The position numbers and the translations under genes were made by a program. A stretch of 14,077 bases of DNA from a virus, in IMG/VR virus record IMGVR_UViG_3300037264_007252; one strand, given 5' to 3'. Below are positions 947 through 14,077 of this stretch, one piece after another (the first letter of the stretch is position 1; each line of letters starts with the position of its first letter). Below the pieces are notes generated by a model. That model made no database searches. It was not told the origin of the DNA and worked only from the letters and a program-made list of their open reading frames with translations.

Positions 947-1313
947 GCGTCCGCTCCCCGCGCGTCCACGTTTCACGGTTCGCATCGTCCTCGGCGGTAT
1001 CGAAGGCGTGGGCCCGAAGCGGCACTACGCTGCGCTCGCCGAGTTCTACGTCGACAACGGCCAGACGTACGACCAGGAACTTTCCGTCCCGGCCGCGTTC
1101 GTGGCCTACCGTGTCACCATGCAGTGCGTAGAAAACCGGCCCGGCCCGCCCAACGCCGAGCGTGCGTTCGCCAAGATGGTCATCGACGCGATCCCGCACG
1201 ACGTCTGGGACGCAGGCATCGCAGCGATCGCCGCCCGTGACCCGCACGGCCAACGTACCGCGCAGGAGATCATCGAGCGCTGGCGCCAGGGAGAATACGA
1301 TGCAGCTCGTTAG
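936..1313 (+). CDS. Hypothetical protein
   Basis: ATG at 936 with a GAAGGGAG Shine-Dalgarno. High third-position GC. Its stop overlaps the next gene's start. Confidence 0.5.
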   Translation: MRRKRPLPARPRFTVRIVLGGIEGVGPKRHYAALAEFYVDNGQTYDQELSVPAAFVAYRVTMQCVENRPGPPNAERAFAKMVIDAIPHDVWDAGIAAIAARDPHGQRTAQEIIERWRQGEYDAAR

Positions 1314-2028
1314 CGCTACGCAGCCGGACTGGACAGAACGCCGACAGGCAATCGCGAACTGGATCCAGTTCGTCGGCGACTTCGGTCAGATCGATGTAGA
1401 CGCGCTCCTGCCCTGCATCGAGGACAACGCGTTCGTCGAAGCCGTCGAGGCTGTTCTCAAGGCTGCGGGACGACCCTGGGCCTCGTTCGAGCACGTCCGC
1501 GACTTCTGCGTGCAGCGCCTCTACGGCGAGAAGTCGATAGCCCATACAGGGCCACCCCGGCCTCGGCACCGGGTCACGCCGTTCTCGGTGCCGATGGAGT
1601 TGCTTCGTAGCGTATTCACGTTCAAGGACCACAGAGGGCGCGACCAAAGTGAGTTCGTCCCTGGACGGCTCCGCATCCGCGAGGAGAGCTTCGTCCTTGA
1701 TGTCCCGATGAACGGTGAAGCCGATCATCGCTTCCTGGTAACGCAGGACCAGATGCTTCTCCTCACGACCGTATGGGCACGCGTCGTCCCGCCGATCGAA
1801 CCGCTCCGGCACCGTGTCGAGATCATCGATGAAGGCGCCAACCGTCGTCAGGACATGCTGCTGTGGGCGCTCGTGACCGAGCCGCAGCCGTTGTTCCTGC
1901 CGCTCTCACCCAACACCTCTGTGAACGTCAGGGTTCGACCGGGCTGGGCACCGCAATCGAACGAGAACACGCCGCCCATACACGTGCTCATGTCCTTTGA
2001 AGGCTGGTCGTATCTAGGAGGCTGGTGA
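1300..2028 (+). CDS. Hypothetical protein (243 aa)
   Basis: Internal ATG at 1300 of ORF 1162..2028, with a GGGAGAA Shine-Dalgarno. The stretch upstream of 1300 in this frame is Arg/Ser-rich junk that overlaps the previous gene. The stop overlaps the GTG/ATG of the next gene. Confidence 0.55.
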   Translation: MQLVSATQPDWTERRQAIANWIQFVGDFGQIDVDALLPCIEDNAFVEAVEAVLKAAGRPWASFEHVRDFCVQRLYGEKSIAHTGPPRPRHRVTPFSVPMELLRSVFTFKDHRGRDQSEFVPGRLRIREESFVLDVPMNGEADHRFLVTQDQMLLLTTVWARVVPPIEPLRHRVEIIDEGANRRQDMLLWALVTEPQPLFLPLSPNTSVNVRVRPGWAPQSNENTPPIHVLMSFEGWSYLGGW

Positions 2029-2660
2029 TGACGCTGCAACATGAACTGGAACAAGCACAAGCCGAGGTCGCACGCTACCGCGAGCGCGAAGCGTACTTCG
2101 CCAAGGCGCTGGGTGTCACCGACGGCGGCCAGTACCGGGCCGACTGGCCGAGTTCGATCGAACGGGTTCTGCGGGACTGCAAAGCCAAGGACGAGGCGCT
2201 GACGAAGGCCGCCGATACGTTTCGGGACTTCCATGCAGCTATGACGCTGCTCGGGCACGATCTATCGGCCAGCGCGGCAGCGATTGCTGAGGAAGCCACA
2301 CGCAAAGCGATCGGCCCCGACCGCCCGGCCCCGTGTCCGATCCCAATGATCCTTCACTGCCCCGAGTGCAAGACGCAGCACGTGGACGAGGGGATCTGGG
2401 CGACGACACGCTTGCACAAGTCGCATCTGTGCGCGGCCTGTAACCACACGTGGCGGGTCGCTGACGTTCCCACCGTCGGTGTAGCAACGTTGCCGAGCGT
2501 TGCCCGTGATCGCTGCTGCGATCGTTGCGAGGAACCCAACATCATGGACGCCCCCGACGGGCCCGTCTGTCACTGCGGAAAGCCGTCGGCGTTCGAGTCC
2601 GGCGTGTGCACCGACTGTGGGAACTGGGACCTGGCACGCTGGCAACGCGAAGGCGCATGA
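2025..2660 (+). CDS. Hypothetical protein with an N-terminal coiled-coil and a C-terminal multi-CxxC (double zinc-ribbon-like) region
   Basis: AGGAGG Shine-Dalgarno at about 2015. Start is GTG 2025 or ATG 2028. The N-terminus 'LQHELEQAQAEVARYREREAYFAKAL' is heptad-like. The C-terminus carries CPEC...CAAC and CCDRC...CHCG...CTDCG clusters. Confidence 0.55.
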   Translation: MMTLQHELEQAQAEVARYREREAYFAKALGVTDGGQYRADWPSSIERVLRDCKAKDEALTKAADTFRDFHAAMTLLGHDLSASAAAIAEEATRKAIGPDRPAPCPIPMILHCPECKTQHVDEGIWATTRLHKSHLCAACNHTWRVADVPTVGVATLPSVARDRCCDRCEEPNIMDAPDGPVCHCGKPSAFESGVCTDCGNWDLARWQREGA

Positions 2661-3214
2661 TGACGCCCATGAACTCGATCGACGACGTCAAGGCACTCCT
2701 CGAACGTCTGCCAGAAGACCAGCGTAAGGCGTGCCTGAACTTCCTCAGCAAGAACGGCGAGCGCATGCTTCGCGCGCCTGGCTCGACGCATAACCACCAG
2801 GCGTGGAAGGGTGGCTACCTCGACCACGTCGCCGAGGTGATGAAGCTAGCCATCGCCTTCTACGACGCGTTTGTGGTGCTGGGACGTCCACTGCCCTTCA
2901 CACCGGCGGACGCGTTGGTCGTCCTGTTCCTGCACGATGCTGAGAAGCCGTGGCGCATCATCGAACACGAGGGTGGTTACGCGCACGGGTTCCCGAAGGA
3001 TCAGGCCGACGTGTTCCGTGAGCGGCTACTGCAAGAATACGGCATCTGGGGCACGCTGACGGCGGCCCAGAGGGACGCGCTTCTCTACGTCGAAGGTGAG
3101 AAGGACCGCTACACCCCGGACCAGCGCAACATGAGCGAGCTGGCAGCGTTCTGTCACCTGTGTGACGTCACGTCGGCGCGCATCTTCCATGACTATCCGA
3201 GGCGAAACAGATGA
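2657..3214 (+). CDS. HD-domain metal-dependent phosphohydrolase-like protein
   Basis: ATG 2657 forms an ATGA overlap with the upstream stop. The motifs 'STHNHQAWKGGYLDHV' and 'LVVLFLHDAEKP' match the H..H / HD pattern of the HD superfamily. Confidence 0.5.
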   Translation: MMTPMNSIDDVKALLERLPEDQRKACLNFLSKNGERMLRAPGSTHNHQAWKGGYLDHVAEVMKLAIAFYDAFVVLGRPLPFTPADALVVLFLHDAEKPWRIIEHEGGYAHGFPKDQADVFRERLLQEYGIWGTLTAAQRDALLYVEGEKDRYTPDQRNMSELAAFCHLCDVTSARIFHDYPRRNR

Positions 3215-3696: not shown

Positions 3697-3744
3697 GTGC
3701 GTCCAGAGCAACGAAACGAAAGAGCAGAGGAAAGGGGATACGAC

Positions 3745-6378
3745 ATGAGCGAACCACAGAGGATGGAGAAGCGCGATCTGGTGCTGGCACCTGGCACCTA
3801 CGCGTACATGCAGGACGTGACCAAGGGCGTGGTCAAGACGTACACCGGCCCGACGGTGATCAACCCGACGGCTCAGGAAGTCCCGGTCGTCTACGACCCG
3901 GACGAGCGAACGTTCAAGCGCGCGGACAGCCTGGAGGCGGCGCTGTGCACGGCGGTGGTGGCCGACGAGGGCTTCTACATCGTGCTCAAGAACCCGGCCA
4001 AGCAGAACAAGCATCCCGATGACGGGGCAACGAGCATGAGCGCCGACCTCGACGTCGGCCGCGCAATCATCATCCCCGGTCCGGCCGTGTTCGCCCTTTG
4101 GCCGATGCAGGCCGCCGAGGTCGTCCAGGGCCATCATCTGCGCTCGAACCAGTACCTGCTGGTTCGCGTCTACAACGAGGACGAAGCCCGGGCGAACTGG
4201 AAGAAGGCGGTCGTCAAGCCCGCTGAGGCAACCGCCGTCGGGGTCACGCCGCCCGAGAAGCCAGTCGTGACTGCACCGCCGCCTGCCGATCTCACCGTCG
4301 GCAAGCTGATCATCATCCGAGGCACGGAAGTCTCGTTCTACATCCCACCGACCGGCGTCGAGGTCGTGGCGGACAGTGCAAACACGTACGTGCGCGACGC
4401 GCTCACGCTGGAGCGTCTGGAGTACTGCATCCTCGTCGATGAGAACGGCAAGAAGCGCTACGAGCGCGGTCCGCAGGTCGTGTTCCCGATCCCGTCCGAG
4501 CGCTTCATCGAGCGCGAAGCCAAGGGGCACGCTCGGCGCAAGTTCTCGGCCATCGAGCTGAACGAGATCCAGGGCCTGCACATCAAGGTGATCGCTGACT
4601 ACAAGGACGAGCGCAGCGGCAAGGATCACAAGGCGGGCGACGAACTGTTCATCACCGGGAAGGACGAGGCGATCTACTTCCCCCGCGAGGAACACTCGCT
4701 CATCAGCTACGACGGCCGATCCAAGCACTTCGCCACGGCCGTCCCGGCGGGCGAGGCACGCTACGTGATGAACCGGGTCACCGGTGAAATCCGTACGGAG
4801 CGCGGCCCCAAGATGCTGCTCCCGGACCCAAGGATGGAGGTGATCGTCCGCCGCGTCCTGTCAGACAAGCAGGGCACGCTCTGGTACCCAGGCAACCCGG
4901 AGGTGCTCGCCTACAACCAGTGGCTGCGTGACGTTCTCTCGAAGGCCCCGACCACGCGCTCGGGTGCGGTCTCCGAAGGCGACTTCGAGCGCAACGCGAA
5001 GGTGGCAACGCAGCAGGCACAGCGAGGTGGTGGTGCCGCGCCCGTCGCAGCGGTCATGGCAATGTCGAACCAGGGCTACGCTGCGATGGAGAAGAGCCTG
5101 GTGTCGGCCGACCAGGCTGCGATGATGGGTGACGAGTTCACTCGGGGCTCGAACTACACCCAACCGCGCTCGATCACGCTCCAGACCAAGTACGAGGGCG
5201 CGCCTGCGATCCAGGCGTGGACCGGCTACGCGGTCATGATCGTGTCGAAGACCGGCAACCGCCGGGTCGAGATCGGGCCGAAGAACGTGCTCATGGAGTA
5301 CGACGAGGCACTGGAAGTCCTGGAGCTGTCAACGGGCAAGCCGAAGACGACCGACAACCTGCTCAAGACCGTCTACCTGCGCGTCCTCAACAACAAGATC
5401 GGCGACATCGTCACTGACATCGAGACGAGTGACCACATTCGACTCAACATCAAGCTCTCGCTGCGGGTCAACTTCGAGGGCGAGCCGTCGAAGTGGTTCG
5501 AGGTCGAGAACTACGTCAAGTACCTCACCGACCACGTACGTTCGGTGCTCAAAGGCACGGTCAAGAAGCAGAACATCGAGCAGTTCTACGCGGGCGCGGT
5601 CGACATCATCCGCGACACCATCCTCGGCAAGCAGGTGGAGAAGAACGAGCGGCCGGGCATGACGTTCAAGGAGAACGGCATGCGCGTCACCGACGTCGAG
5701 GTGCTGGAGGTGAAGATCACCGACCAGACCGTCGCCGGGCTGCTGGCTCAAGCGCAGCACAACGTCGTCAAGGGCAACATCGAGCTGGCCCAGGCAGCAC
5801 GGGACCTCGACGTGGCCCGTCAGCAGGAGGAGTTCACGCGGCAAAAAGCCGACTTCAAGGCCGTGACGCTGAAGCGCGTACTGGGGCTGGAAGTCGACGA
5901 GATCGTCGAGAAGCAGAAGGTCGCGGAGACGCGGATCCGGACGCAGCGGGAGGAGCAGTCCCAGCTCAAGGAGCTGGAGGTCGAGAAGCAGGCCGTGATC
6001 GATACAGCGTTCGCGGCGAAGCTGAAGCGCGAGAAGGATGAGGCCGATCAGAAGCAACAGATCAACGCCGCGCTCCAACAGCTCACGATCGAGCTGACCA
6101 AGGCCGACGCAGACGCGGTGGTTCAGCGCTTTGCAGCAGCTCAGCCGGGCTTCGCTGAAGCGCTTCGCGCGCTCCAGAACGACGACGTGTTCGTCAAGGT
6201 CGCACAGGCATGGAGCATCCAGCGCGTGATCGGCGGCGAGAACGTATCCGACGCCCTCAAGCGCGTGTTCGAGGGCACGCCGGTCGGTACCATCGTCGGC
6301 AAGCTGCTCGGCAGCAACGGCAACGGGCAACACGAAGGGGTGAAGCCGACGCCGTCGGCGCCCGCCACCCGGCCGTAG
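3745..6378 (+). CDS. mvp: Major vault protein (MVP) homolog, full length (877 aa): MVP repeat domains + SPFH-like shoulder + coiled-coil cap-helix
   Basis: ATG 3745 is preceded by a strong purine-rich Shine-Dalgarno (GAGGAAAGGGGA). The listed ORF begins at GTG 3697, immediately after the upstream stop. Segments match mammalian MVP as recalled from memory. 'DLVLAPGTYAYMQDVTKGVVKTYTGPTV' resembles the MVP N-terminus '[29 protein letters not shown]'. 'AGDELFITGKDEAIYFP' and 'ARYVMNRVTGEIRTERGPKMLLPDPRMEV' resemble 'AGDHWLIRGPLEYVP' and '[29 protein letters not shown]'. 'RRVEIGPKNVLMEYDEALEVLELSTGKPK...IVTDIETSDHIRLNIKLSLRVNFE' resembles the shoulder '[29 protein letters not shown]...[23 protein letters not shown]'. 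About 150 residues of E/Q/K/A-rich coiled coil sit where the cap-helix lies. Total length is close to human MVP (893 aa). Confidence 0.8.
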   Translation: MSEPQRMEKRDLVLAPGTYAYMQDVTKGVVKTYTGPTVINPTAQEVPVVYDPDERTFKRADSLEAALCTAVVADEGFYIVLKNPAKQNKHPDDGATSMSADLDVGRAIIIPGPAVFALWPMQAAEVVQGHHLRSNQYLLVRVYNEDEARANWKKAVVKPAEATAVGVTPPEKPVVTAPPPADLTVGKLIIIRGTEVSFYIPPTGVEVVADSANTYVRDALTLERLEYCILVDENGKKRYERGPQVVFPIPSERFIEREAKGHARRKFSAIELNEIQGLHIKVIADYKDERSGKDHKAGDELFITGKDEAIYFPREEHSLISYDGRSKHFATAVPAGEARYVMNRVTGEIRTERGPKMLLPDPRMEVIVRRVLSDKQGTLWYPGNPEVLAYNQWLRDVLSKAPTTRSGAVSEGDFERNAKVATQQAQRGGGAAPVAAVMAMSNQGYAAMEKSLVSADQAAMMGDEFTRGSNYTQPRSITLQTKYEGAPAIQAWTGYAVMIVSKTGNRRVEIGPKNVLMEYDEALEVLELSTGKPKTTDNLLKTVYLRVLNNKIGDIVTDIETSDHIRLNIKLSLRVNFEGEPSKWFEVENYVKYLTDHVRSVLKGTVKKQNIEQFYAGAVDIIRDTILGKQVEKNERPGMTFKENGMRVTDVEVLEVKITDQTVAGLLAQAQHNVVKGNIELAQAARDLDVARQQEEFTRQKADFKAVTLKRVLGLEVDEIVEKQKVAETRIRTQREEQSQLKELEVEKQAVIDTAFAAKLKREKDEADQKQQINAALQQLTIELTKADADAVVQRFAAAQPGFAEALRALQNDDVFVKVAQAWSIQRVIGGENVSDALKRVFEGTPVGTIVGKLLGSNGNGQHEGVKPTPSAPATRP

Positions 6379-6596
6379 CGCAGGTACGTGGGGTTCCAGG
6401 CCGTGAAAACGTCATCGGACGCTGGAACAGCCAAGGCAGCGAGGGACGCCTCAAAACCACGCGGGGACGCTCGCGTGTCTAAGAGGCAGGGGCACCTTGG
6501 CATTTTCGTTTTCGATCTGAACGGCTACGTTGGGATCCAATCGAAGTGGCGGCCGATAGAGGGTGATCTGCGCCAAGCCACGAACGCCAGCGAAGC

Positions 6597-6605
6597 TGGT
6601 AAACT
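6597..6605 (+). promoter_or_regulatory. Possible extended -10 element (TGG TAAACT) about 55 nt upstream of the zinc-ribbon gene
   Basis: TGnTAnnnT pattern in the 280-bp gap after the MVP gene. No convincing -35 box. Confidence 0.2.
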
Positions 6606-6659
6606 GTGATCCGGGCAGCGACTAGCCCAGCGACTGAACTGAAAAGGACGAGAGACATC

Positions 6660-6974
6660 ATGACGATTGAGAATCAGGACCAGCAGCTCGTGTGCATCGA
6701 CTGCAAGCAGGAGTTCGTCTTCACGCAGGGGGAGCAGAAGTTCTTCGCCGAGCGGAACTTCACTCCACCGAAGCGCTGCAAGCCCTGCCGCGACGCCAAG
6801 AAGGCGGACAAGGCACAGGGAAGTGGTGGCGGTGACAACGGCGGCGATCGCGTTGCCGCTGGCAACGGTGGCGGCAACGACAACGCAGCCTTCTGGACCC
6901 GAGGCGACAACCGGGGAGGTAGCCGGGACGAGAACGAGGGGCGTGGCGGCGGGAACCGCCGTAGGCGCAGGTGA
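6660..6974 (+). CDS. Zinc-ribbon protein (CIDC-x17-CKPC) with a C-terminal Gly/Asn/Arg-rich (RGG-like) low-complexity tail; putative nucleic-acid-binding
   Basis: ATG 6660 with an AAAGGA upstream. The motif 'LVCIDCKQEFVFTQGEQKFFAERNFTPPKRCKPCRDAKK' is the conserved zinc-ribbon module I recall fused to some bacterial DEAD-box helicases and cold-shock proteins. The tail 'GSGGGDNGGDR...GNGGGNDN...RGGSRDENEGRGGGNRRRRR' is RGG/Gly-rich. Confidence 0.6.
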   Translation: MTIENQDQQLVCIDCKQEFVFTQGEQKFFAERNFTPPKRCKPCRDAKKADKAQGSGGGDNGGDRVAAGNGGGNDNAAFWTRGDNRGGSRDENEGRGGGNRRRRR

Positions 6975-7141: not shown

Positions 7142-7621
7142 ATGCAACTCTCGCAGAAGTACGTCGTCTTGATCGCGCGAGCACGGCTGGTTCAAGCTCG
7201 TCGTGATGACACGAACGGCGCCGCTCTTGCCGATGTTGTCGGCCAGCGCATCGCTTGGACTGCACTTGCGGCGAGCGCAGACGCAGGGCCAGGCGCGTTG
7301 CGTGGGCGTGCACTATGGCTCATCGGTTGGACACTCGGGCAACTCGTCGGGCAAGGTTTTGAGCCCGAGGAGATTGCCCGGCCCGAGGGCCTCGATGCGA
7401 TCGAGGCCGTTGCCGTCGTCGCAGCGATCCAGAAGCGGCGCAACATCGCACACGTGAACCAACGCCCGCGTGGGCCGACGTTTGGTGGGACCGCACCGCG
7501 TCAGCAGTTGTTCATGCCGGTGAACGCTGGTAGGCCGCTGGCCGCGACCTGGGCTGCCGTCTACAAAGCGGCGCGTACCGAGCTAGACTGCTGCTTCGAT
7601 CCAGCCGGACGCCGACAGTGA
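7142..7621 (+). CDS. Hypothetical protein
   Basis: ATG 7142. Its stop forms an ATGA overlap with the next gene. Third-position GC is moderate. The antisense alternative (6525..7313 minus) is Ala/Arg-rich junk. Confidence 0.4.
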   Translation: MQLSQKYVVLIARARLVQARRDDTNGAALADVVGQRIAWTALAASADAGPGALRGRALWLIGWTLGQLVGQGFEPEEIARPEGLDAIEAVAVVAAIQKRRNIAHVNQRPRGPTFGGTAPRQQLFMPVNAGRPLAATWAAVYKAARTELDCCFDPAGRRQ

Positions 7622-8409
7622 TGGACGAGACTCGCGCAGCACAAGTCGCAGACGCGATCGCCTGGTTGGAACTAACCGGGCGTGTCACGCACGTGCCCGT
7701 CACACGTCTCACCCGGCGGCTGCGTGAAGGCGACGAAGCTCTCATCGACGCCATGTTGGCGCTACTCACCATCCCAGGGCGTCCCGGTGAACGTCTGGAG
7801 GTCTTACGCGATTTCCTGATCACGCAAGAGTTGGGCGAGCCCGAGGAATTACGTAGCAGCAGCGACTGGACCTCGTCGCCGTCACCGTTCAACGTCCCCG
7901 AGTGGGCACTACTCCCCTGGCTCGGGAAGGACATCAAGCGGCTACGCATCCGCCAGTTCTACGACTGTCTGCTCGTCGGTGGCGACGGCCGGTTGCCGGG
8001 GACGACAGGGGCAACGGTGCCGATGCGGGCAGCAGGACAGTGGCGGCTGTTCGGTAACACGCACATCGGTGAGCCGCTGATGACGAACCTGCAAGTCGCC
8101 GGGCAGTTTTGCTTCGATACGATGTTCGTCGCGACGGCCTGGTGGCTGGTGACGCTCAACTCTTGGGCGAGCGCCGAGGCATTCTTCGCGCGCAGCCACG
8201 TCTCGTTCGAGGTCGGTGATCGGCCCGAAGCTGTCGTGCAGGCCCTGCCACTATTTCGCGCACACCAACCGATCTTCGTGCCGGTCCCGCACCGTCAGAA
8301 CGTCGCCGTGGTGCTCAACTTCCATGGCGATCTGCCATTGCCGAGCGCCGGACCGTCGATCCCGGTGTACGTCTACGTTGAGGGCTGGGCAGCCAAGGAC
8401 GTGCGGTGA
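7618..8409 (+). CDS. Hypothetical protein (263 aa)
   Basis: ATGA overlap start. Protein-like composition with several Trp/Phe-rich stretches. No family recognised. Confidence 0.5.
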   Translation: MMDETRAAQVADAIAWLELTGRVTHVPVTRLTRRLREGDEALIDAMLALLTIPGRPGERLEVLRDFLITQELGEPEELRSSSDWTSSPSPFNVPEWALLPWLGKDIKRLRIRQFYDCLLVGGDGRLPGTTGATVPMRAAGQWRLFGNTHIGEPLMTNLQVAGQFCFDTMFVATAWWLVTLNSWASAEAFFARSHVSFEVGDRPEAVVQALPLFRAHQPIFVPVPHRQNVAVVLNFHGDLPLPSAGPSIPVYVYVEGWAAKDVR

Positions 8410-8414
8410 CCGTC

Positions 8415-8840
8415 TCACCACCGTCTGCGGCGGGAGCGTGGCGCGTCATCTTCCTTCTGACGCCGTGCCTCCTCGTAAGCCTCGTTGCGCCGACGGTCTG
8501 CCTCGCTCTGCCAACCCTTCCCACGACAAGCGAAGCACATGGAGATCACACCCTCCTCGGCTTCGTGGGTACGTCCACGTGGCGCGATGCCGGTTCCACC
8601 GCACTTGTTGCACACCCAAAATGGTGCGTCTTCGCGCATGAGCCCAACAATGACGTGCGCGGCGTTGAACCAATTTTCGGGCACAAGCTCTACTGGCTCA
8701 CGGTAGTCTTCGTGATCCGGTCCACGATAAAGCTTGCGTGCAATTTTCTCGGCTTCAGTGTCAAATTTTTGTGACGGCAACCCAGACTGCGCACGCAGGA
8801 TTGCATAACGACGGCGTATCTCGTCGATGGAGCGGCTCAC
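8415..8840 (-). CDS. Hypothetical zinc-ribbon protein (CNKCGGTG...CFACRGKG) with a basic C-terminus; locally lower GC
   Basis: GTG start at 8840 with GCCAGGACG upstream. Protein-like composition. It converges on gene 7618..8409 with only a 5-bp gap. Confidence 0.5.
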   Translation of the reverse strand: MSRSIDEIRRRYAILRAQSGLPSQKFDTEAEKIARKLYRGPDHEDYREPVELVPENWFNAAHVIVGLMREDAPFWVCNKCGGTGIAPRGRTHEAEEGVISMCFACRGKGWQSEADRRRNEAYEEARRQKEDDAPRSRRRRW

Positions 8841-8913
8841 GGGCGTCCTGGCGTTACACGCTGACCGCGCTTGAACACGGCTACCGCTCGTCTTGTGGAT
8901 CGACGGTGGTCAC

Positions 8914-9072
8914 CTATTCACCGTAGCTGACCATCTGCCCATGGTCACAGACGATGTAGTGACGGTCACCGGAGCGATCGGTCAGCACCACAGCAGCATG
9001 ACGGCGCACTCCGTCACTGAAGCCGCCCGTCGACCACTTACCACCTTTGGCAGCTTGCGTGCGTGCACGCAT
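8914..9072 (-). CDS. Possible small hypothetical protein ('...WSTGGFSDGVRRHAAVVLTDRSGDRHYIVCDHGQMVSYGE'); the longer listed ORF runs to 9252 and would overlap gene A by 71 nt
   Basis: The C-terminal half is protein-like. Third-position GC is only moderate and the start is ambiguous. Confidence 0.25.
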   Translation of the reverse strand: MRARTQAAKGGKWSTGGFSDGVRRHAAVVLTDRSGDRHYIVCDHGQMVSYGE

Positions 9073-9181
9073 CGCGCTAGCGGGCCCTTTGCGTGCCCAC
9101 CACGTCTGGGCTTCTTGGATGGTTGGCGTCCTCGTGCACCGTTGTGGCTTCTTCACGCAGTTCTCCTTCGCGCCTTGCGTT

Positions 9182-9673
9182 TCATACGAAGCTCTTGCGG
9201 TAGAGCTTCTCGGCGCTTCGACAGTCACCGGTGAAGGCTTGCTGGACGGCAAGATGCAGCCGCCGCTCAGAGGTCATGTCACACGCCGCGCTCTTCTTGC
9301 ACGACCGGAGCTTCATAGCGATCTTGTCGTAGTTCCCGCACCTGGGTGCATGCTGGGCCGCCCGCTCGGTCATGCGTTCCCACGGCTCAGCCTCGACCTC
9401 GTCCCAGTCATCTTCATAGTCGCCAACACGACCAGAGTTTTTCGTCGCGATACGCTTGGCGGCGCGTCCAGTGCTGACGGCCAAGAACACGCCCAGGGCG
9501 ATAAGGCCGAGAGTGATCGTTGTACCGACGACCCACATCGCGACAAGCGATTCGGCCGACGGTATGCCCTCGGCGCCAAGACCGAACATCTGATTCGGAC
9601 CGCTTTCGCCGAACCCGGGCGAAGCGGTCTCGGTGCCGTGCCCGTCCATCGTCGTGTGGGTAATCGCGAGCAC
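9182..9673 (-). CDS. Small membrane protein, paralog A (N-terminus MLAITHTT-MDGHGTETASP, GFG/GLG motifs, one TM helix)
   Basis: GTG start sits inside a 56-nt block nearly identical to the 5' end of the next gene. TM helix 'LVAMWVVGTTITLGLIALGVFLAV'. Good third-position GC. Confidence 0.55.
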   Translation of the reverse strand: MLAITHTTMDGHGTETASPGFGESGPNQMFGLGAEGIPSAESLVAMWVVGTTITLGLIALGVFLAVSTGRAAKRIATKNSGRVGDYEDDWDEVEAEPWERMTERAAQHAPRCGNYDKIAMKLRSCKKSAACDMTSERRLHLAVQQAFTGDCRSAEKLYRKSFV

Positions 9674-9680
9674 GGGTTAC
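9625..9680 (-). repeat. Copy 1 of a duplicated 5' gene segment (56 nt)
   Basis: 'cggtctcggtgccgtgcccgtccatcg' plus 'tcgtgtgggtaatcgcgagcacgggttac' recurs at 10201..10227 and 10270..10298. The two blocks have 2 and 0 mismatches respectively. In copy 2 they are separated by a 42-nt in-frame insertion. Confidence 0.7.
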
Positions 9681-10291
9681 GCTTTCTTCGGCTTGCCGAA
9701 CCCTTGAGCGACAGCAATCACCGGTGTGATCACAGGAAACAGCGACCCCAGGACGAACCACCCGATCGCCCAACCTACGCTCTGGTTTCGCTTGTAGCCG
9801 TGGTACGCGGATGCCGCGCCAGACACCGTCGACAGAACGCTCCAGATGATGACTGCCGTACTACGCGTCCGTTTCGTACGTGCGGCACGCTCCAGCGCAT
9901 CCGCAACGAGGCTTGCATCACCGCCCTCGGCGATGATCGCCGCCGCGAGCTTCTTGCGCGTGCCAGCGTCGAACTGTGCCAAGAGCTTGGCGAGGTCGAA
10001 CGCGTTGACATGGTCGAACGCACCAAACTTTGTGCGCGGCGCAATTCGCGCTGCTGTCTCCTGAATCTGCTCATCCGTCAACGCCGCGCCGAGGCCCATG
10101 ATGTCCGGCTTGCCGAACCCGGGCACGTTCCACGGCACCTTCTGTACGGAGCCGCCCCCGCCCCGGACGAAGACCGTTTCGTGAGGCGTGACGGGTGAGA
10201 CGGTCTCCGTGCCGAGCCCGTCCATCGGCGTGAGGAACTCCTTCGGCGGCAGCCTGAAAACTTCGTCGGTCGTGTGGGTAATCGCGAGCAC
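9677..10291 (-). CDS. Small membrane protein, paralog B (N-terminus MLAITHTT + 14-aa insertion + MDGLGTETVSP; C-terminal double TM; GFGKP motif twice)
   Basis: Its stop TAA is followed by CCC and then the GTG start of paralog A. Its 5' region duplicates that of A. C-terminal hydrophobic segments 'AVIIWSVLSTVSGAASAY' and 'VGWAIGWFVLGSLFPVITPVIAVA'. Confidence 0.55.
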   Translation of the reverse strand: MLAITHTTDEVFRLPPKEFLTPMDGLGTETVSPVTPHETVFVRGGGGSVQKVPWNVPGFGKPDIMGLGAALTDEQIQETAARIAPRTKFGAFDHVNAFDLAKLLAQFDAGTRKKLAAAIIAEGGDASLVADALERAARTKRTRSTAVIIWSVLSTVSGAASAYHGYKRNQSVGWAIGWFVLGSLFPVITPVIAVAQGFGKPKKA

Positions 10292-10298
10292 GGGTTAC
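10201..10298 (-). repeat. Copy 2 of the duplicated 5' gene segment (27 nt + 42-nt insert + 29 nt)
   Basis: Direct comparison of the two loci on the plus strand. The matches include the stop codon, the CCC spacer and the start codon of adjacent genes. Confidence 0.7.
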
Positions 10299-10582
10299 AC
10301 TTTCCGGCCGCGTACGACGTAGCCCAAGGCGAAGCCGGACACGGCCCCGAACAGGCCGGTGATGATGACCAGGGTCGCGGTCAGGCTCTTCGAGAAGCCG
10401 GTGTCGGCGGCTTCCTGGCCGAGGCCGTGTATCGGGTAGCCCTGTTCGATCGCGTGCGTGCCGAGGCCGTGACCGTAGACGAGCACGGGCCCGTTTTCGG
10501 CCGCACGCGCAAAGCCCGCGCTGTTGGCCGTGTAGCCGTTGGCGCGGCTGGCGCCGTTCTTCACTCTGGTCGCCGTCAGCAT
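10295..10582 (-). CDS. Small membrane protein C (HGLGTHAIEQGYPIHGLG motifs, C-terminal TM helix), first gene of the minus-strand trio
   Basis: ATG start next to the divergent promoter region. Its stop is followed by CCC and then the GTG of paralog B. TM helix 'LTATLVIITGLFGAVSGFALGYVV'. Confidence 0.5.
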   Translation of the reverse strand: MLTATRVKNGASRANGYTANSAGFARAAENGPVLVYGHGLGTHAIEQGYPIHGLGQEAADTGFSKSLTATLVIITGLFGAVSGFALGYVVRGRKV

Positions 10583-10636: not shown

Positions 10637-11266
10637 ATGGCCGCCCAGTTCGAGCGCAGCGTTGAGCGCTGGCGCAAGCCCCTGGAGAAGCTCGCCGACT
10701 GGGTGCCGCTCGACTTCCTGCTCGCCTGGGTCGACAAGGAATCCAACGGCCTCCCACATGTCGTCTCATCCATCGGTGAGCGCGGCCTGTTCCAGGTCCA
10801 CAAAGACGAAGTCCCGTACCTCAAGCTCTCGGAGGCCGAGTTCCAGAAGCTGACCAAGGACACGGCGCTGGCACTCAAGACCGGCGTCAAGCAGGCCAAG
10901 CTCTACGCAAACTTCTCGAAGAAGTTCCTGGCCGAGGTCAGGGTCGAGTGGCACGGCCAGGACTTCTGGAAACTGGTCAAGCTCCACCACGCTGCCTTCG
11001 CCATGCCCCGGTATACGCTGCTCGCGTTCAAGCGCGAACATGGGCGTGGTCCGGCGAGTTGGGACGAGCTGTACAAGTTCGCTACGAAGATGGCTGCGGA
11101 GAAGAAAGACCTGATCCCCGACAAGCCGAAGTTTTCGGCCCGGCTGCGGGGACTGACCGCGAAGACGTTCAAGAACGCCGACACGGTCGGCAGCGTCGTG
11201 CCTGCAATCGCTGCTACGGACTTGCCCGCGCTGAGAACCTTCTTCCGTCTTCTAGCGGTGGCGTAG
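10637..11266 (+). CDS. Lytic transglycosylase (SLT / lysozyme-like) domain protein, no signal peptide (endolysin-like or virion-associated)
   Basis: 'DKESNGLPHVVSSIGERGLFQV' fits the SLT family signature E-S-x(7-9)-S-x-x-G-A-x-G-L-M-Q, with the catalytic Glu in 'ES'. The part of listed ORF 10274..11266 upstream of 10637 is antisense to genes B and C and was rejected. Confidence 0.5.
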   Translation: MAAQFERSVERWRKPLEKLADWVPLDFLLAWVDKESNGLPHVVSSIGERGLFQVHKDEVPYLKLSEAEFQKLTKDTALALKTGVKQAKLYANFSKKFLAEVRVEWHGQDFWKLVKLHHAAFAMPRYTLLAFKREHGRGPASWDELYKFATKMAAEKKDLIPDKPKFSARLRGLTAKTFKNADTVGSVVPAIAATDLPALRTFFRLLAVA

Positions 11267-13451: not shown

Positions 13452-14077
13452 ATGACCCGACTCGTTCACTTCATCCTTGCTCTCAGCGCCTGCGGCGCAT
13501 TGCTGGCTTGCCCTGGCCCCAAGCCCAAGCCGCAGCCTGAGCCCCACAAGGTCATCGTCATACCCGGGACGACCGTGTTGATCGCACAGGCGGAGCCTGC
13601 CGTCGGAGCTACCGCCGCTGCGTCAGTCACCGTCTACATCAGCTTCGGTGCCGACTCGGTGATCCAAGCGGCTGACTGGGCGAGCTGGTGCACGACGACG
13701 TCGGCGCTCACCTGCAACTTCAACCTGACCGGCTCGAAGGCGTTGCCGAACCCGAACGGCGCGTACCTCAACATGACGATGAGCGTCGGCGCACCTGTCG
13801 GCTGCGGCGTGACCAAGGCCGAGCTGAACGTCAACAACCCGAACTGGTACGACACGCTCGACGTGAGTCTCGTCGACGGCTACAGCAACAACATGGAGAT
13901 CCGCTACACGCCACCGACGGGGCCGCCGGTGACAACGTTGGGGCCGCTCAACGGTCAGACTGGGAACGAAAAAGTCCTGGGCGTTTACCCCTACGGCTGC
14001 GATGTCTGCGTCGCTCGACAGAACCCACCGTGTGGGATCCCGACGGGAACTGACGGCTGCAAGGCAGGGACGCAGTA
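13452..14077 (+). CDS. 3'-truncated lipoprotein (lipobox L-S-A-C) with a thaumatin-like (TLP/GH64-like) domain motif
   Basis: ATG 13452 with an AAGAGGAG Shine-Dalgarno. The signal peptide 'MTRLVHFILALSAC' has a lipobox Cys14. Frame 0 is open to the window edge and the gene is absent from the track because there is no stop inside the window. 'AELNVNNPNWYDTLDVSLVDGYSNNMEI' closely resembles the conserved thaumatin-family core '...LNQ...DF.DISLVDGFN.PM.F'. Confidence 0.5.
   Translation, partial: MTRLVHFILALSACGALLACPGPKPKPQPEPHKVIVIPGTTVLIAQAEPAVGATAAASVTVYISFGADSVIQAADWASWCTTTSALTCNFNLTGSKALPNPNGAYLNMTMSVGAPVGCGVTKAELNVNNPNWYDTLDVSLVDGYSNNMEIRYTPPTGPPVTTLGPLNGQTGNEKVLGVYPYGCDVCVARQNPPCGIPTGTDGCKAGTQ

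Follow-up and report, generated by a model that had tools for sequence, protein, structure and literature searches.

What vaults do has been unclear since their discovery. Their shell protein, the major vault protein (MVP), has nine repeat domains, R1-R9, and its shoulder and cap helix drive lateral oligomerization (bioRxiv 10.1101/2023.11.10.566534); upon expression in insect cells, vaults assemble from MVP alone (Stephen et al. 2001, as cited in bioRxiv 10.1101/2023.11.10.566534). MVP homologs have also been reported in Myxococcales, Cytophagales, and Oscillatoriales, in a study that cites earlier work (Sokolskyi 2019, bioRxiv 10.1101/872010), as well as in two gut Caudoviricetes, whose MVP genes lie among non-conserved neighbors with neither TEP1 nor vPARP (Santos et al. 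2023, bioRxiv 10.1101/2023.11.10.566534), and MVP-like genes are mentioned in a Borg preprint. The literature that we searched yielded no experiments on a prokaryotic or viral MVP, and the protein goes unmentioned in a recent survey of 790 myxophages. Here, we describe an MVP gene at positions 3745-6378 of the IMG/VR virus record IMGVR_UViG_3300037264_007252, a stretch of 14,077 nucleotides referred to below as the window. The family is already annotated and described in bacteria and phages, and the window gene is one more member of it; for this reason, the locus alone does not open the question of vault function.

Our data show that the window protein contains all the parts of a vault shell subunit, correctly ordered, lacks a membrane anchor, and is encoded by a single gene without the eukaryotic partners. 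We lean toward the view that this is a genuine prokaryotic or viral MVP, encoded by an accessory gene that stands alone on a piece of a large phage genome, and that its product would build a cytoplasmic shell. More specifically, the window most likely represents 14 kb of a larger replicon, either a large (possibly jumbo) phage or a related mobile element; a high-GC bacterium of Myxococcota is the probable host, and the MVP lineage has been transferred between chromosomes of Myxococcota and the phages of this phylum.

Gene call, family assignment, and predicted fold

The gene is an uninterrupted open reading frame (ORF) on the + strand that runs from ATG 3745 to TAG 6376-6378 and encodes 877 amino acids (aa). 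Its longest reading opens at GTG 3697, and the JGI call, which already carries the name 'major vault protein', starts at the second Met (871 aa; P0001); we favor the start at 3745 because the consensus N-terminus of the relatives opens MSE...KRDLVL. A Shine-Dalgarno-like sequence precedes this ATG, in agreement with the bacterial ribosome-binding site proposed in the initial annotation. The GC content at third codon positions (GC3) is 0.88 overall and 0.83-0.93 along the frame, with a second-position GC of 0.39 and a sequence that is 63% GC. In addition, the ratio of nonsynonymous to synonymous substitution rates (dN/dS) is 0.26 against the closest relative (L007, 81% identical) and 0.20 against a further one (L005), pointing to purifying selection. 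Given the GC3 of 0.88 and the dN/dS of 0.26, the ORF is a real gene under selection, and the coordinates and length first assigned to it are correct. The gene and the parts of its product are as follows, with pLDDT denoting the per-residue confidence of the predicted structure described below.

3727..3737, + strand: Shine-Dalgarno-like GAGGAAAGGGG, 7 nt 5' of ATG 3745, read from the sequence
3745..6378, + strand: MVP-family gene, 877 aa plus stop, called from Pfam, phmmer against the PDB, Foldseek, GC3, and dN/dS
3772..4221, + strand: three N-terminal beta-repeat domains (R1-R3-like), residues 10-159; all-beta, pLDDT >90, Foldseek matches to R1-R7
4222..4299, + strand: Pro/Ala-rich variable loop in the third repeat, residues 160-185; low pLDDT, conservation 1.79 bits
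4300..4854, + strand: further beta repeats (end of R3 to R6-like), residues 186-370; sub-threshold Vault match at 273-314
4855..5193, + strand: helical and then disordered segment at the position of rat R7-R8, residues 371-483
5194..5388, + strand: R9-type repeat (Pfam Vault_3), residues 484-548; pLDDT ~90, PF17795 at 37 bits
5389..5724, + strand: shoulder domain with SPFH-like fold, residues 549-660; PF11978 at 96.1 bits, pLDDT 89-96
5725..6138, + strand: single long cap helix, residues 661-798; uninterrupted, pLDDT ~80, aligns with the rat post-shoulder stretch
6139..6375, + strand: short C-terminal helices (cap-ring position) and disordered tail, residues 799-877

The initial annotation held that the protein belongs to the MVP family proper and that the resemblance goes beyond the widespread SPFH/band-7 shoulder, and it proposed profile searches as a check. 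These searches bear the assignment out, and the refuting outcome named there, matches to SPFH models only, did not occur. Pfam MVP_shoulder (PF11978) matched residues 549-660 over the whole model (96.1 bits, cut-off 25), and Vault_3 (PF17795), which describes an R9-type repeat, matched residues 502-545 directly before it (37 bits, cut-off 28.8), whereas Band_7 (PF01145) gave no match at E<=1. Likewise, a phmmer search of all PDB sequences returned MVP chains (E 1.3e-13), with residues 199-794 of the query colinear with rat residues 151-791, and its sole non-MVP match was a weak one to an artificial protein. A profile built from 56 relatives aligned residues 483-784 with rat 467-798 at 99 bits, a stretch that comprises R9, the shoulder, and the cap helix; the same profile gave only -1.3 to 3.2 bits for each individual rat N-terminal repeat. 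The C-terminal pattern is shared by the family, as MVP_shoulder and Vault_3 were both found in all 39 diverse relatives that we inspected, and Band_7 in 11 of them. For the N-terminal half, hhalign detected an internal repeat between residues 185-258 and 297-370 (E 4e-4), offset by about two repeat units, which supports its construction from repeats. Thus, as far as sequence alone goes, the C-terminal half is unambiguously MVP and the N-terminal repeats stay below threshold.

The protein contains no hydrophobic segment, the maximum Kyte-Doolittle average over 19 residues being 1.48. No NCBIfam family matched it, nor did any PHROG, the latter being families built from cultured phages; PADLOC found no defense model among the ten proteins tested, i.e., MVP and nine neighbors.

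The predicted structure adds what the sequence profiles leave below threshold. Our first AlphaFold2 model drew on 56 close relatives and gave a poor N-terminal half (pLDDT 64); it was replaced by a second one based on 114 more diverse sequences, including relatives of 43-50% identity. This second model has a mean pLDDT of 73.8, with values >90 for residues 10-160 and ~90 for residues 181-220 and 490-660. When it was compared with the PDB by Foldseek, 12 vault structures ranked first (E 1e-29 to 3e-23, 900-990 alignment columns), so that the monomer prediction called for in the initial annotation points to the vault fold. They were followed by four chains from the murine R1-R7 crystals 3GF5, 3GNF, and 3GNG (E 4.6e-9 to 6.8e-9, probability 1.00) and, as a third tier, by flotillin, prohibitin, erlin, stomatin, and HflK/C (E 4e-7 to 1e-3). 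The N-terminal half is, therefore, MVP-like in its predicted fold. The gap between 1e-29 for MVP structures and 4e-7 for the best SPFH protein also speaks for a true MVP.

Along the protein, the beta-repeat regions are the most conserved parts of the family (3.49 bits for residues 121-159 and 3.44 bits for residues 186-370). The loop at residues 160-185 has no counterpart in the rat MVP alignment, after which residues 199-370 run colinear with rat MVP from its residue 151 onward in the phmmer alignment. Within the segment 371-483, helices are predicted at residues 374-458 and the pLDDT is <50 for residues 442-483; its conservation is low (2.06-2.43 bits), its occupancy among relatives is 0.78 for residues 371-441, and it aligns weakly with the rat protein. 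At the C-terminus, predicted helices at residues 803-855 (pLDDT 46-60) are followed by a disordered tail (857-877) that is present in 32% of the aligned relatives. The conservation of the cap helix has a periodicity that peaks at 160 degrees, from which its packing is not interpretable.

Relatives and genomic surroundings

MVP homologs were initially thought to be only rarely noted in bacteria, and this view has to be abandoned: JGI had named this very gene, two preprints from 2019 and 2023 describe homologs, and our searches uncovered the family in large numbers. A word-indexed search gave at least 5816 clusters (90% identity) at E<=0.001, the best 120 of which were all full-length, 55-81% identical to the window protein, and in many cases named 'major vault protein' by JGI. 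When 1.84 billion representatives at 50% identity were searched exhaustively, 1204 were returned at E<=0.001, including 616 clusters at E<=1e-30; the best 150 of these representatives were mostly near full length, with 41-59% identity. Using two peptide patterns and one genome per GTDB species, we located at least 120 loci, almost all from Myxococcota (Kofleriaceae, Haliangiales, Nannocystaceae, and Polyangia) and on contigs of up to 2.9 Mb. MVP is nearly universal in metagenome-assembled genomes (MAGs) of Kofleriaceae, Haliangiales, and Nannocystaceae, and many MAGs of Kofleriaceae, Haliangiales, and other Myxococcales carry two or three paralogs, which fall into two separate neighbor-joining clades. 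Other named sources are Bacteroidia/Microscillaceae, Desulfobacterales, Eremiobacterota, Ozemobacteraceae, Anaerolineae, and Candidatus Venteria, and some relatives bear the NCBI name 'SPFH domain-containing protein'. We also noted a 53%-identical copy outside Myxococcota in an assembly of Candidatus Achromatium palustre (L056).

Viral contigs are represented, too. At least 230 of those in IMG/VR carry an MVP relative, and the best 80 of these relatives are 39-56% identical to the window protein and all essentially full length, with 46 of the 80 located on contigs of >=100 kb and 15 on contigs of >=200 kb. The contigs of these 80 range in GC content from 0.22 to 0.67, which implies many host lineages. 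In the GenBank phage collection, a 43%-identical copy was found in three huge-phage assemblies (LR756500, LR756501, and LR756503; 462-735 kb).

The contexts of the relatives differ widely. The closest relative (P0002/L007) lies on a 5-kb contig with unrelated neighbors. Five contexts that we inspected at 57-61% identity are phage-like arrays, including L005 (genes for RtcB, primase, a DprA-like protein, Dam methylase, NAPRTase, and an AcrVA2-like protein), L090 (RNase T and PG_binding_1), L091 (GyrB), and L092 (ribonucleotide reductase, Dam methylase, and a RecD-like helicase). Two relatives of ~58-59% identity, on contigs of 288 and 168 kb, are accompanied by genes for thymidylate kinase, UDG, ThyX, dCTP deaminase, and NT5C; on these two phage-like contigs, the thymidylate kinase gene (9293-9898 of L094 and 12672-13466 of L095) directly adjoins the MVP relative. 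The P0072 and P0005 contexts, on Myxococcota-like contigs, consist of ordinary cellular genes. In the neighbor-joining tree, the window protein pairs with L007 inside a clade that holds one Kofleriaceae/Haliangiales chromosomal paralog group together with a basal grade of phage-like copies.

No shared neighbor emerged when all window proteins were compared by tblastn with the sequences flanking MVP at 175 loci, which included chromosomal, phage-like, and IMG/VR ones. Clustering of the IMG/VR flanks gave small lineage-specific groups only, and most of its clusters were off-frame ORFs within MVP. Among these IMG/VR loci (L096-L175), a PTH2-like protein occurs in 9 and an HD-domain/kinase-like protein in 7, and none is shared broadly.

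The window itself contains ~26 callable genes, mostly on the + strand and many with overlapping stop and start codons, apart from a four-gene block on the minus strand at 8415-10582. Most of the neighbors have no family; several are CxxC mini-proteins, and one gives a weak YunG match. The following features flank the MVP gene or were singled out in the initial annotation.

6487..6511, + strand: terminator-like hairpin followed by a T-rich run (pattern match at 6487-6499, then GCATTTTCGT), a weak candidate
6660-6974, + strand: gene for a treble-clef zinc finger (zf_Tbcl, 60.7 bits), the first confident gene after MVP
10637-11266, + strand: gene with a near-threshold SLT match (20.8 bits, cut-off 21.3)

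MVP is followed by a 281-nt spacer (6379-6659), which is unusual in so tightly packed a window and folds only marginally better than shuffled sequence (z -1.67). In a terminator scan, shuffled sequence gave more of these sites than the window did, so the hairpin at 6487-6511 is only suggestive. An ORF inside the spacer (6388-6609) has a low GC3 (0.65) and is a doubtful gene. Gaps like those around the window MVP also flank MVP in other loci, and the GC3 of the gene is among the highest in the window. Its own ribosome-binding site, the spacer with the terminator-like hairpin, and the high GC3 together suggest that the MVP gene is independently and strongly expressed. Scans of the window with Rfam (E<=1) and for tRNA detected no structured RNA, no vault RNA, and no tRNA gene.

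The phage-like character initially ascribed to the locus is supported by its coupled ORFans and by six genes with phage or phage-like relatives. The gene at 11521-11892 matches phrog_12251 (E 6.6e-17), with a 47%-identical match in Myxococcus phage Mx1 (E 9e-21) and further ones in Caulobacter phages of 218-225 kb, and that at 12959-13222 matches phrog_13182 (E 2.6e-26), with counterparts in Bacillus phages of 150-165 kb and a Tunturiibacter phage of 309 kb. The gene at 2657-3211 (+ strand) has an unannotated counterpart in the 635-kb uncultured phage LR745206 (42% identity, E 1e-35); its 185-aa product (2657-3214) carries an HD-like LHDAEKP motif and matches no Pfam family above threshold. 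The zinc-ribbon part of the gene at 2025-2660 matches Burkholderia phages. Furthermore, the pair at 7142-7621 and 7618-8409 recurs in the same order, with two small genes in between, on a 37-kb contig (9073-10771 of L176) that has the same GC as the window (0.63) and combines coupled ORFans with AAA/DUF2201, RF-1, and PEP-utilizer genes. The second gene of this pair is a 263-aa ORFan with only two relative clusters among 5.8 billion proteins, both on similar ORFan arrays. It is also a distant paralog of the ORFan at 1300-2028 (both + strand, on either side of MVP), the N-terminal ~60 aa being 33% identical (E 5e-6). For three neighbor genes, a search for close relatives in IMG/VR found none.

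The zinc-ribbon neighbors pointed out in the initial annotation are real, and across the compared loci they show no conserved partnership with MVP; the zinc-finger gene at 6660-6974, for instance, is not conserved beside MVP elsewhere. Its product has a Gly/Arg/Asn-rich tail ending in RRRRR that is reminiscent of RGG nucleic-acid-binding tails. As for the lysis-type module also proposed there, the SLT-like gene at 10637-11266 is faced by minus-strand membrane proteins (9182-10582), and a lysis cassette made of these genes is a weak reading that the arrangement could accommodate. Two of the membrane proteins (9182-9673 and 9677-10291) share the N-terminal motif MLAITHTT ... MDG.GTET.SP and are followed by a third, small one (10295-10582). 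At the end of the window, a truncated + strand gene (13452-14077) encodes a lipoprotein-like product with a signal peptide, an LSAC lipobox, and a weak Thaumatin-family match (16.3 bits, motif DVSLVDGY); its GC3 of 0.83 is unusually high for a phage-like stretch.

Proposed shell assembly and competing explanations

We postulate that many copies of the window MVP would pack laterally, repeat to repeat and helix to helix, as in vaults and SPFH cages, and form a closed or half-closed homo-oligomeric shell within the infected cell's cytoplasm, with vPARP, TEP1, and vault RNA all absent. Both the shoulder and the cap helix are present and confidently modeled, and SPFH relatives also close into domes, according to the titles of the matched PDB entries. 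Because MVP alone suffices to assemble vaults, the cap helix drives oligomerization, and SPFH relatives form domes, a homo-oligomeric cage is the most economical hypothesis, and we infer on these grounds that the window protein may assemble one. The size and symmetry of such a shell may differ from those of vaults, since its wall seems to have about seven repeats. Rfam and PADLOC scans of the window detected no cargo candidate, RNA, or defense-system signature.

Several observations weigh against a vault-like shell of phage origin. The initial annotation treated the N-terminal repeats as diagnostic, which predicted structure supports through the R1-R7 crystals and sequence does not, as the classical Vault repeat (PF01505) reaches only 17 bits (cut-off 27) at residues 273-314; it is matched at E<=0.01 by only 6 of the 39 relatives, and Vault_2 by 1 of 39. 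Only about seven repeats are recognizable, six before residue 370 and the R9-type one at 484-548, as counted from strands, motifs, and the HMMER alignment, and residues 220-335 have a low pLDDT in the second model; for these two reasons, the geometry of the particle could differ greatly from that of a vault. Among the structured parts, the cap helix shows the lowest conservation (2.25 bits). The neighbor-joining tree that places the window gene carries no support values. Finally, Pfam and PHROGs scans of the neighbors found no terminase, capsid, portal, or tail gene in the 14 kb, and the case for phage origin is circumstantial because the window holds no such hallmark gene.

This last point also favors an alternative in which the window is part of a Myxococcota chromosome, e.g., a genomic island or a decayed prophage, and its MVP an ordinary cellular copy. 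Chromosomal copies of 55-59% identity are abundant in Myxococcota, on the contigs of up to 2.9 Mb noted above; the MVP GC3 of 0.88 lies at the high end of the window and close to that of a high-GC host, and the truncated last gene encodes a lipoprotein with high GC3. However, large ordinary genes surround MVP in the chromosomal contexts inspected, and the genome loci average a GC of 0.69, whereas the window has a GC of 0.63, no neighbor in common with Myxococcota MVP loci, several genes that match phage-only families, and a largest ORFan that is nearly without relatives among 5.8 billion proteins; moreover, none of the seven window proteins tested matched an NCBIfam bacterial family. We therefore regard a chromosomal island as unlikely and, judging from gene content and composition, a phage origin of the window as quite likely. 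A eukaryotic contaminant or a recent eukaryote-to-bacterium transfer was also considered, given that vaults are best known from eukaryotes and that the length is near that of mammalian MVP, and it is refuted: the protein is 15-17% identical to mammalian MVP in structural alignments compared with 57-81% to hundreds of prokaryotic or phage copies, and its ORF is uninterrupted, has a Shine-Dalgarno site, and sits among dense, overlapping genes, some with phage homologs. The initial annotation had reached the same view of a prokaryotic or viral gene.

The nature of the product can likewise be read in other ways. A scaffold of the SPFH/band-7 type, forming a dome on the inner membrane that organizes or shields membrane proteins instead of a free double-shell vault, would fit the SPFH fold of the shoulder, its Foldseek matches to flotillin, prohibitin, erlin, HflK/C, and stomatin (E 4e-7 to 1e-3), the Band_7 matches of 11 of the 39 family members, and the SPFH names given to some relatives at NCBI, and the smaller number of repeats than in mammalian MVP leaves the geometry open. 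Yet the window protein lacks transmembrane and hydrophobic segments as well as a Band_7 match at E<=1, its long conserved beta-repeat wall is without an SPFH counterpart, and MVP structures match it far better; we judge such a dome even less probable than the chromosomal island. That MVP serves as a virion or internal-head component of a large phage seems very improbable. Many IMG/VR viral contigs of 100-500 kb do carry MVP, and a large gene with possibly high expression (GC3 0.88, own Shine-Dalgarno site, and flanking spacers) would fit such a role, but close relatives occupy ordinary Myxococcota chromosomal contexts, often as two paralogs per genome, MVP in phage-like contigs lies among nucleotide-metabolism and replication genes and not structural ones, and no PHROG family of cultured phages matches it.

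Returning to the proposed shell-forming MVP on a phage fragment, our data show that full-length relatives of MVP often occur in large phage contigs, many of 100-500 kb, and that Myxococcota hold two paralog lineages. Collectively, phages and their hosts have repeatedly exchanged MVP as a lone gene, with no partners. A bolder proposal, which we put forward tentatively and consider doubtful, is that large Myxococcota phages and many jumbo phages make a vault-like cage of their own during infection, as a cytoplasmic compartment. If so, the cage could sequester host factors, nucleotides, or defense signals, and it would represent a widespread viral organelle, a new type of viral compartment beside the phage nucleus, and a tractable genetic route to the purpose of vault shells. 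As a minimal system, a phage or myxobacterial MVP would also be attractive for studying a compartment made of the shell alone and its contents.

Comparison with vaults, SPFH cages, and described MVP homologs

The window protein was compared with eukaryotic MVP structures from rat, human, and rabbit (PDB 4V60, 4HL8, 9BW5, and 9Z4W). Like these, it consists of beta repeats, an R9-type repeat, an SPFH-like shoulder, a long cap helix, and a C-terminal cap region, in this order, and its length is similar (877 aa vs 861-893 aa; the 893 aa initially given for human MVP is indeed the length of a major vault protein chain in the PDB). The match to mammalian MVP over the whole length, as first claimed, thus stands for the order of the parts and not for their detail, as the structural alignment has only 15-17% identity and the protein has about seven repeats in place of nine, with the loop at 160-185 and the helical and disordered segment at 371-483. 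Unlike the complete vault ribonucleoprotein, it has no vPARP, TEP1, or vault RNA beside it within the 14-kb window, where the neighbor proteins gave no PARP, TROVE, WD40, or NACHT match.

With SPFH/band-7 cages (flotillin, prohibitin, erlin, stomatin, HflK/C, and QmcA), the window protein shares the shoulder fold; in the cages, the helical region after this fold closes off the multimeric dome, and the resemblance is confined to the shoulder and the helix. SPFH proteins are membrane-anchored and without a beta-repeat wall, in contrast to the window protein with its lack of a hydrophobic segment and of a Band_7 match. When BFVD was searched, only one giant-virus protein was matched over most of its length, namely A0A3G5A4K1 of Harvfovirus sp. 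(802 aa, 966 columns, E 3e-9), which is named 'Prohibitin domain-containing protein' and is possibly a eukaryotic giant virus's own MVP-like protein.

The bacterial MVPs (Sokolskyi 2019, bioRxiv 10.1101/872010) belong to the same family, and their band-7-like shoulder is also found in the window protein. Compared over its full length, the window protein shares 55-61% identity with MAG copies from Kofleriaceae, Haliangiales, Nannocystaceae, and Polyangia; identity is 43-50% for copies attributed to Bacteroidia, Desulfobacterales, Eremiobacterota, and other groups. These bacterial copies are chromosomal and lie among ordinary cellular genes, whereas the window copy lies in an ORFan-rich, phage-like stretch with which they have no neighbor in common.

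The MVPs of huge and jumbo phages (LR756500, LR756501, LR756503, and the uncultivated viral genomes of IMG/VR) are unannotated in their records; they are full-length and colinear with the window protein, lie on viral contigs, and, at 39-56% identity, are more distant from it than the Myxococcota-type copies. The gut Caudoviricetes ctOa11 and ct2Ri15 (bioRxiv 10.1101/2023.11.10.566534), which we compared by their description only, come from the human gut and group with Bacillota phages, whereas the window copy is high-GC and related to Myxococcota. As in these two phages, there are no TEP1 or vPARP homologs in the window, the MVP copy nests among bacterial ones, and MVP is a lone accessory gene among neighbors that are not conserved.

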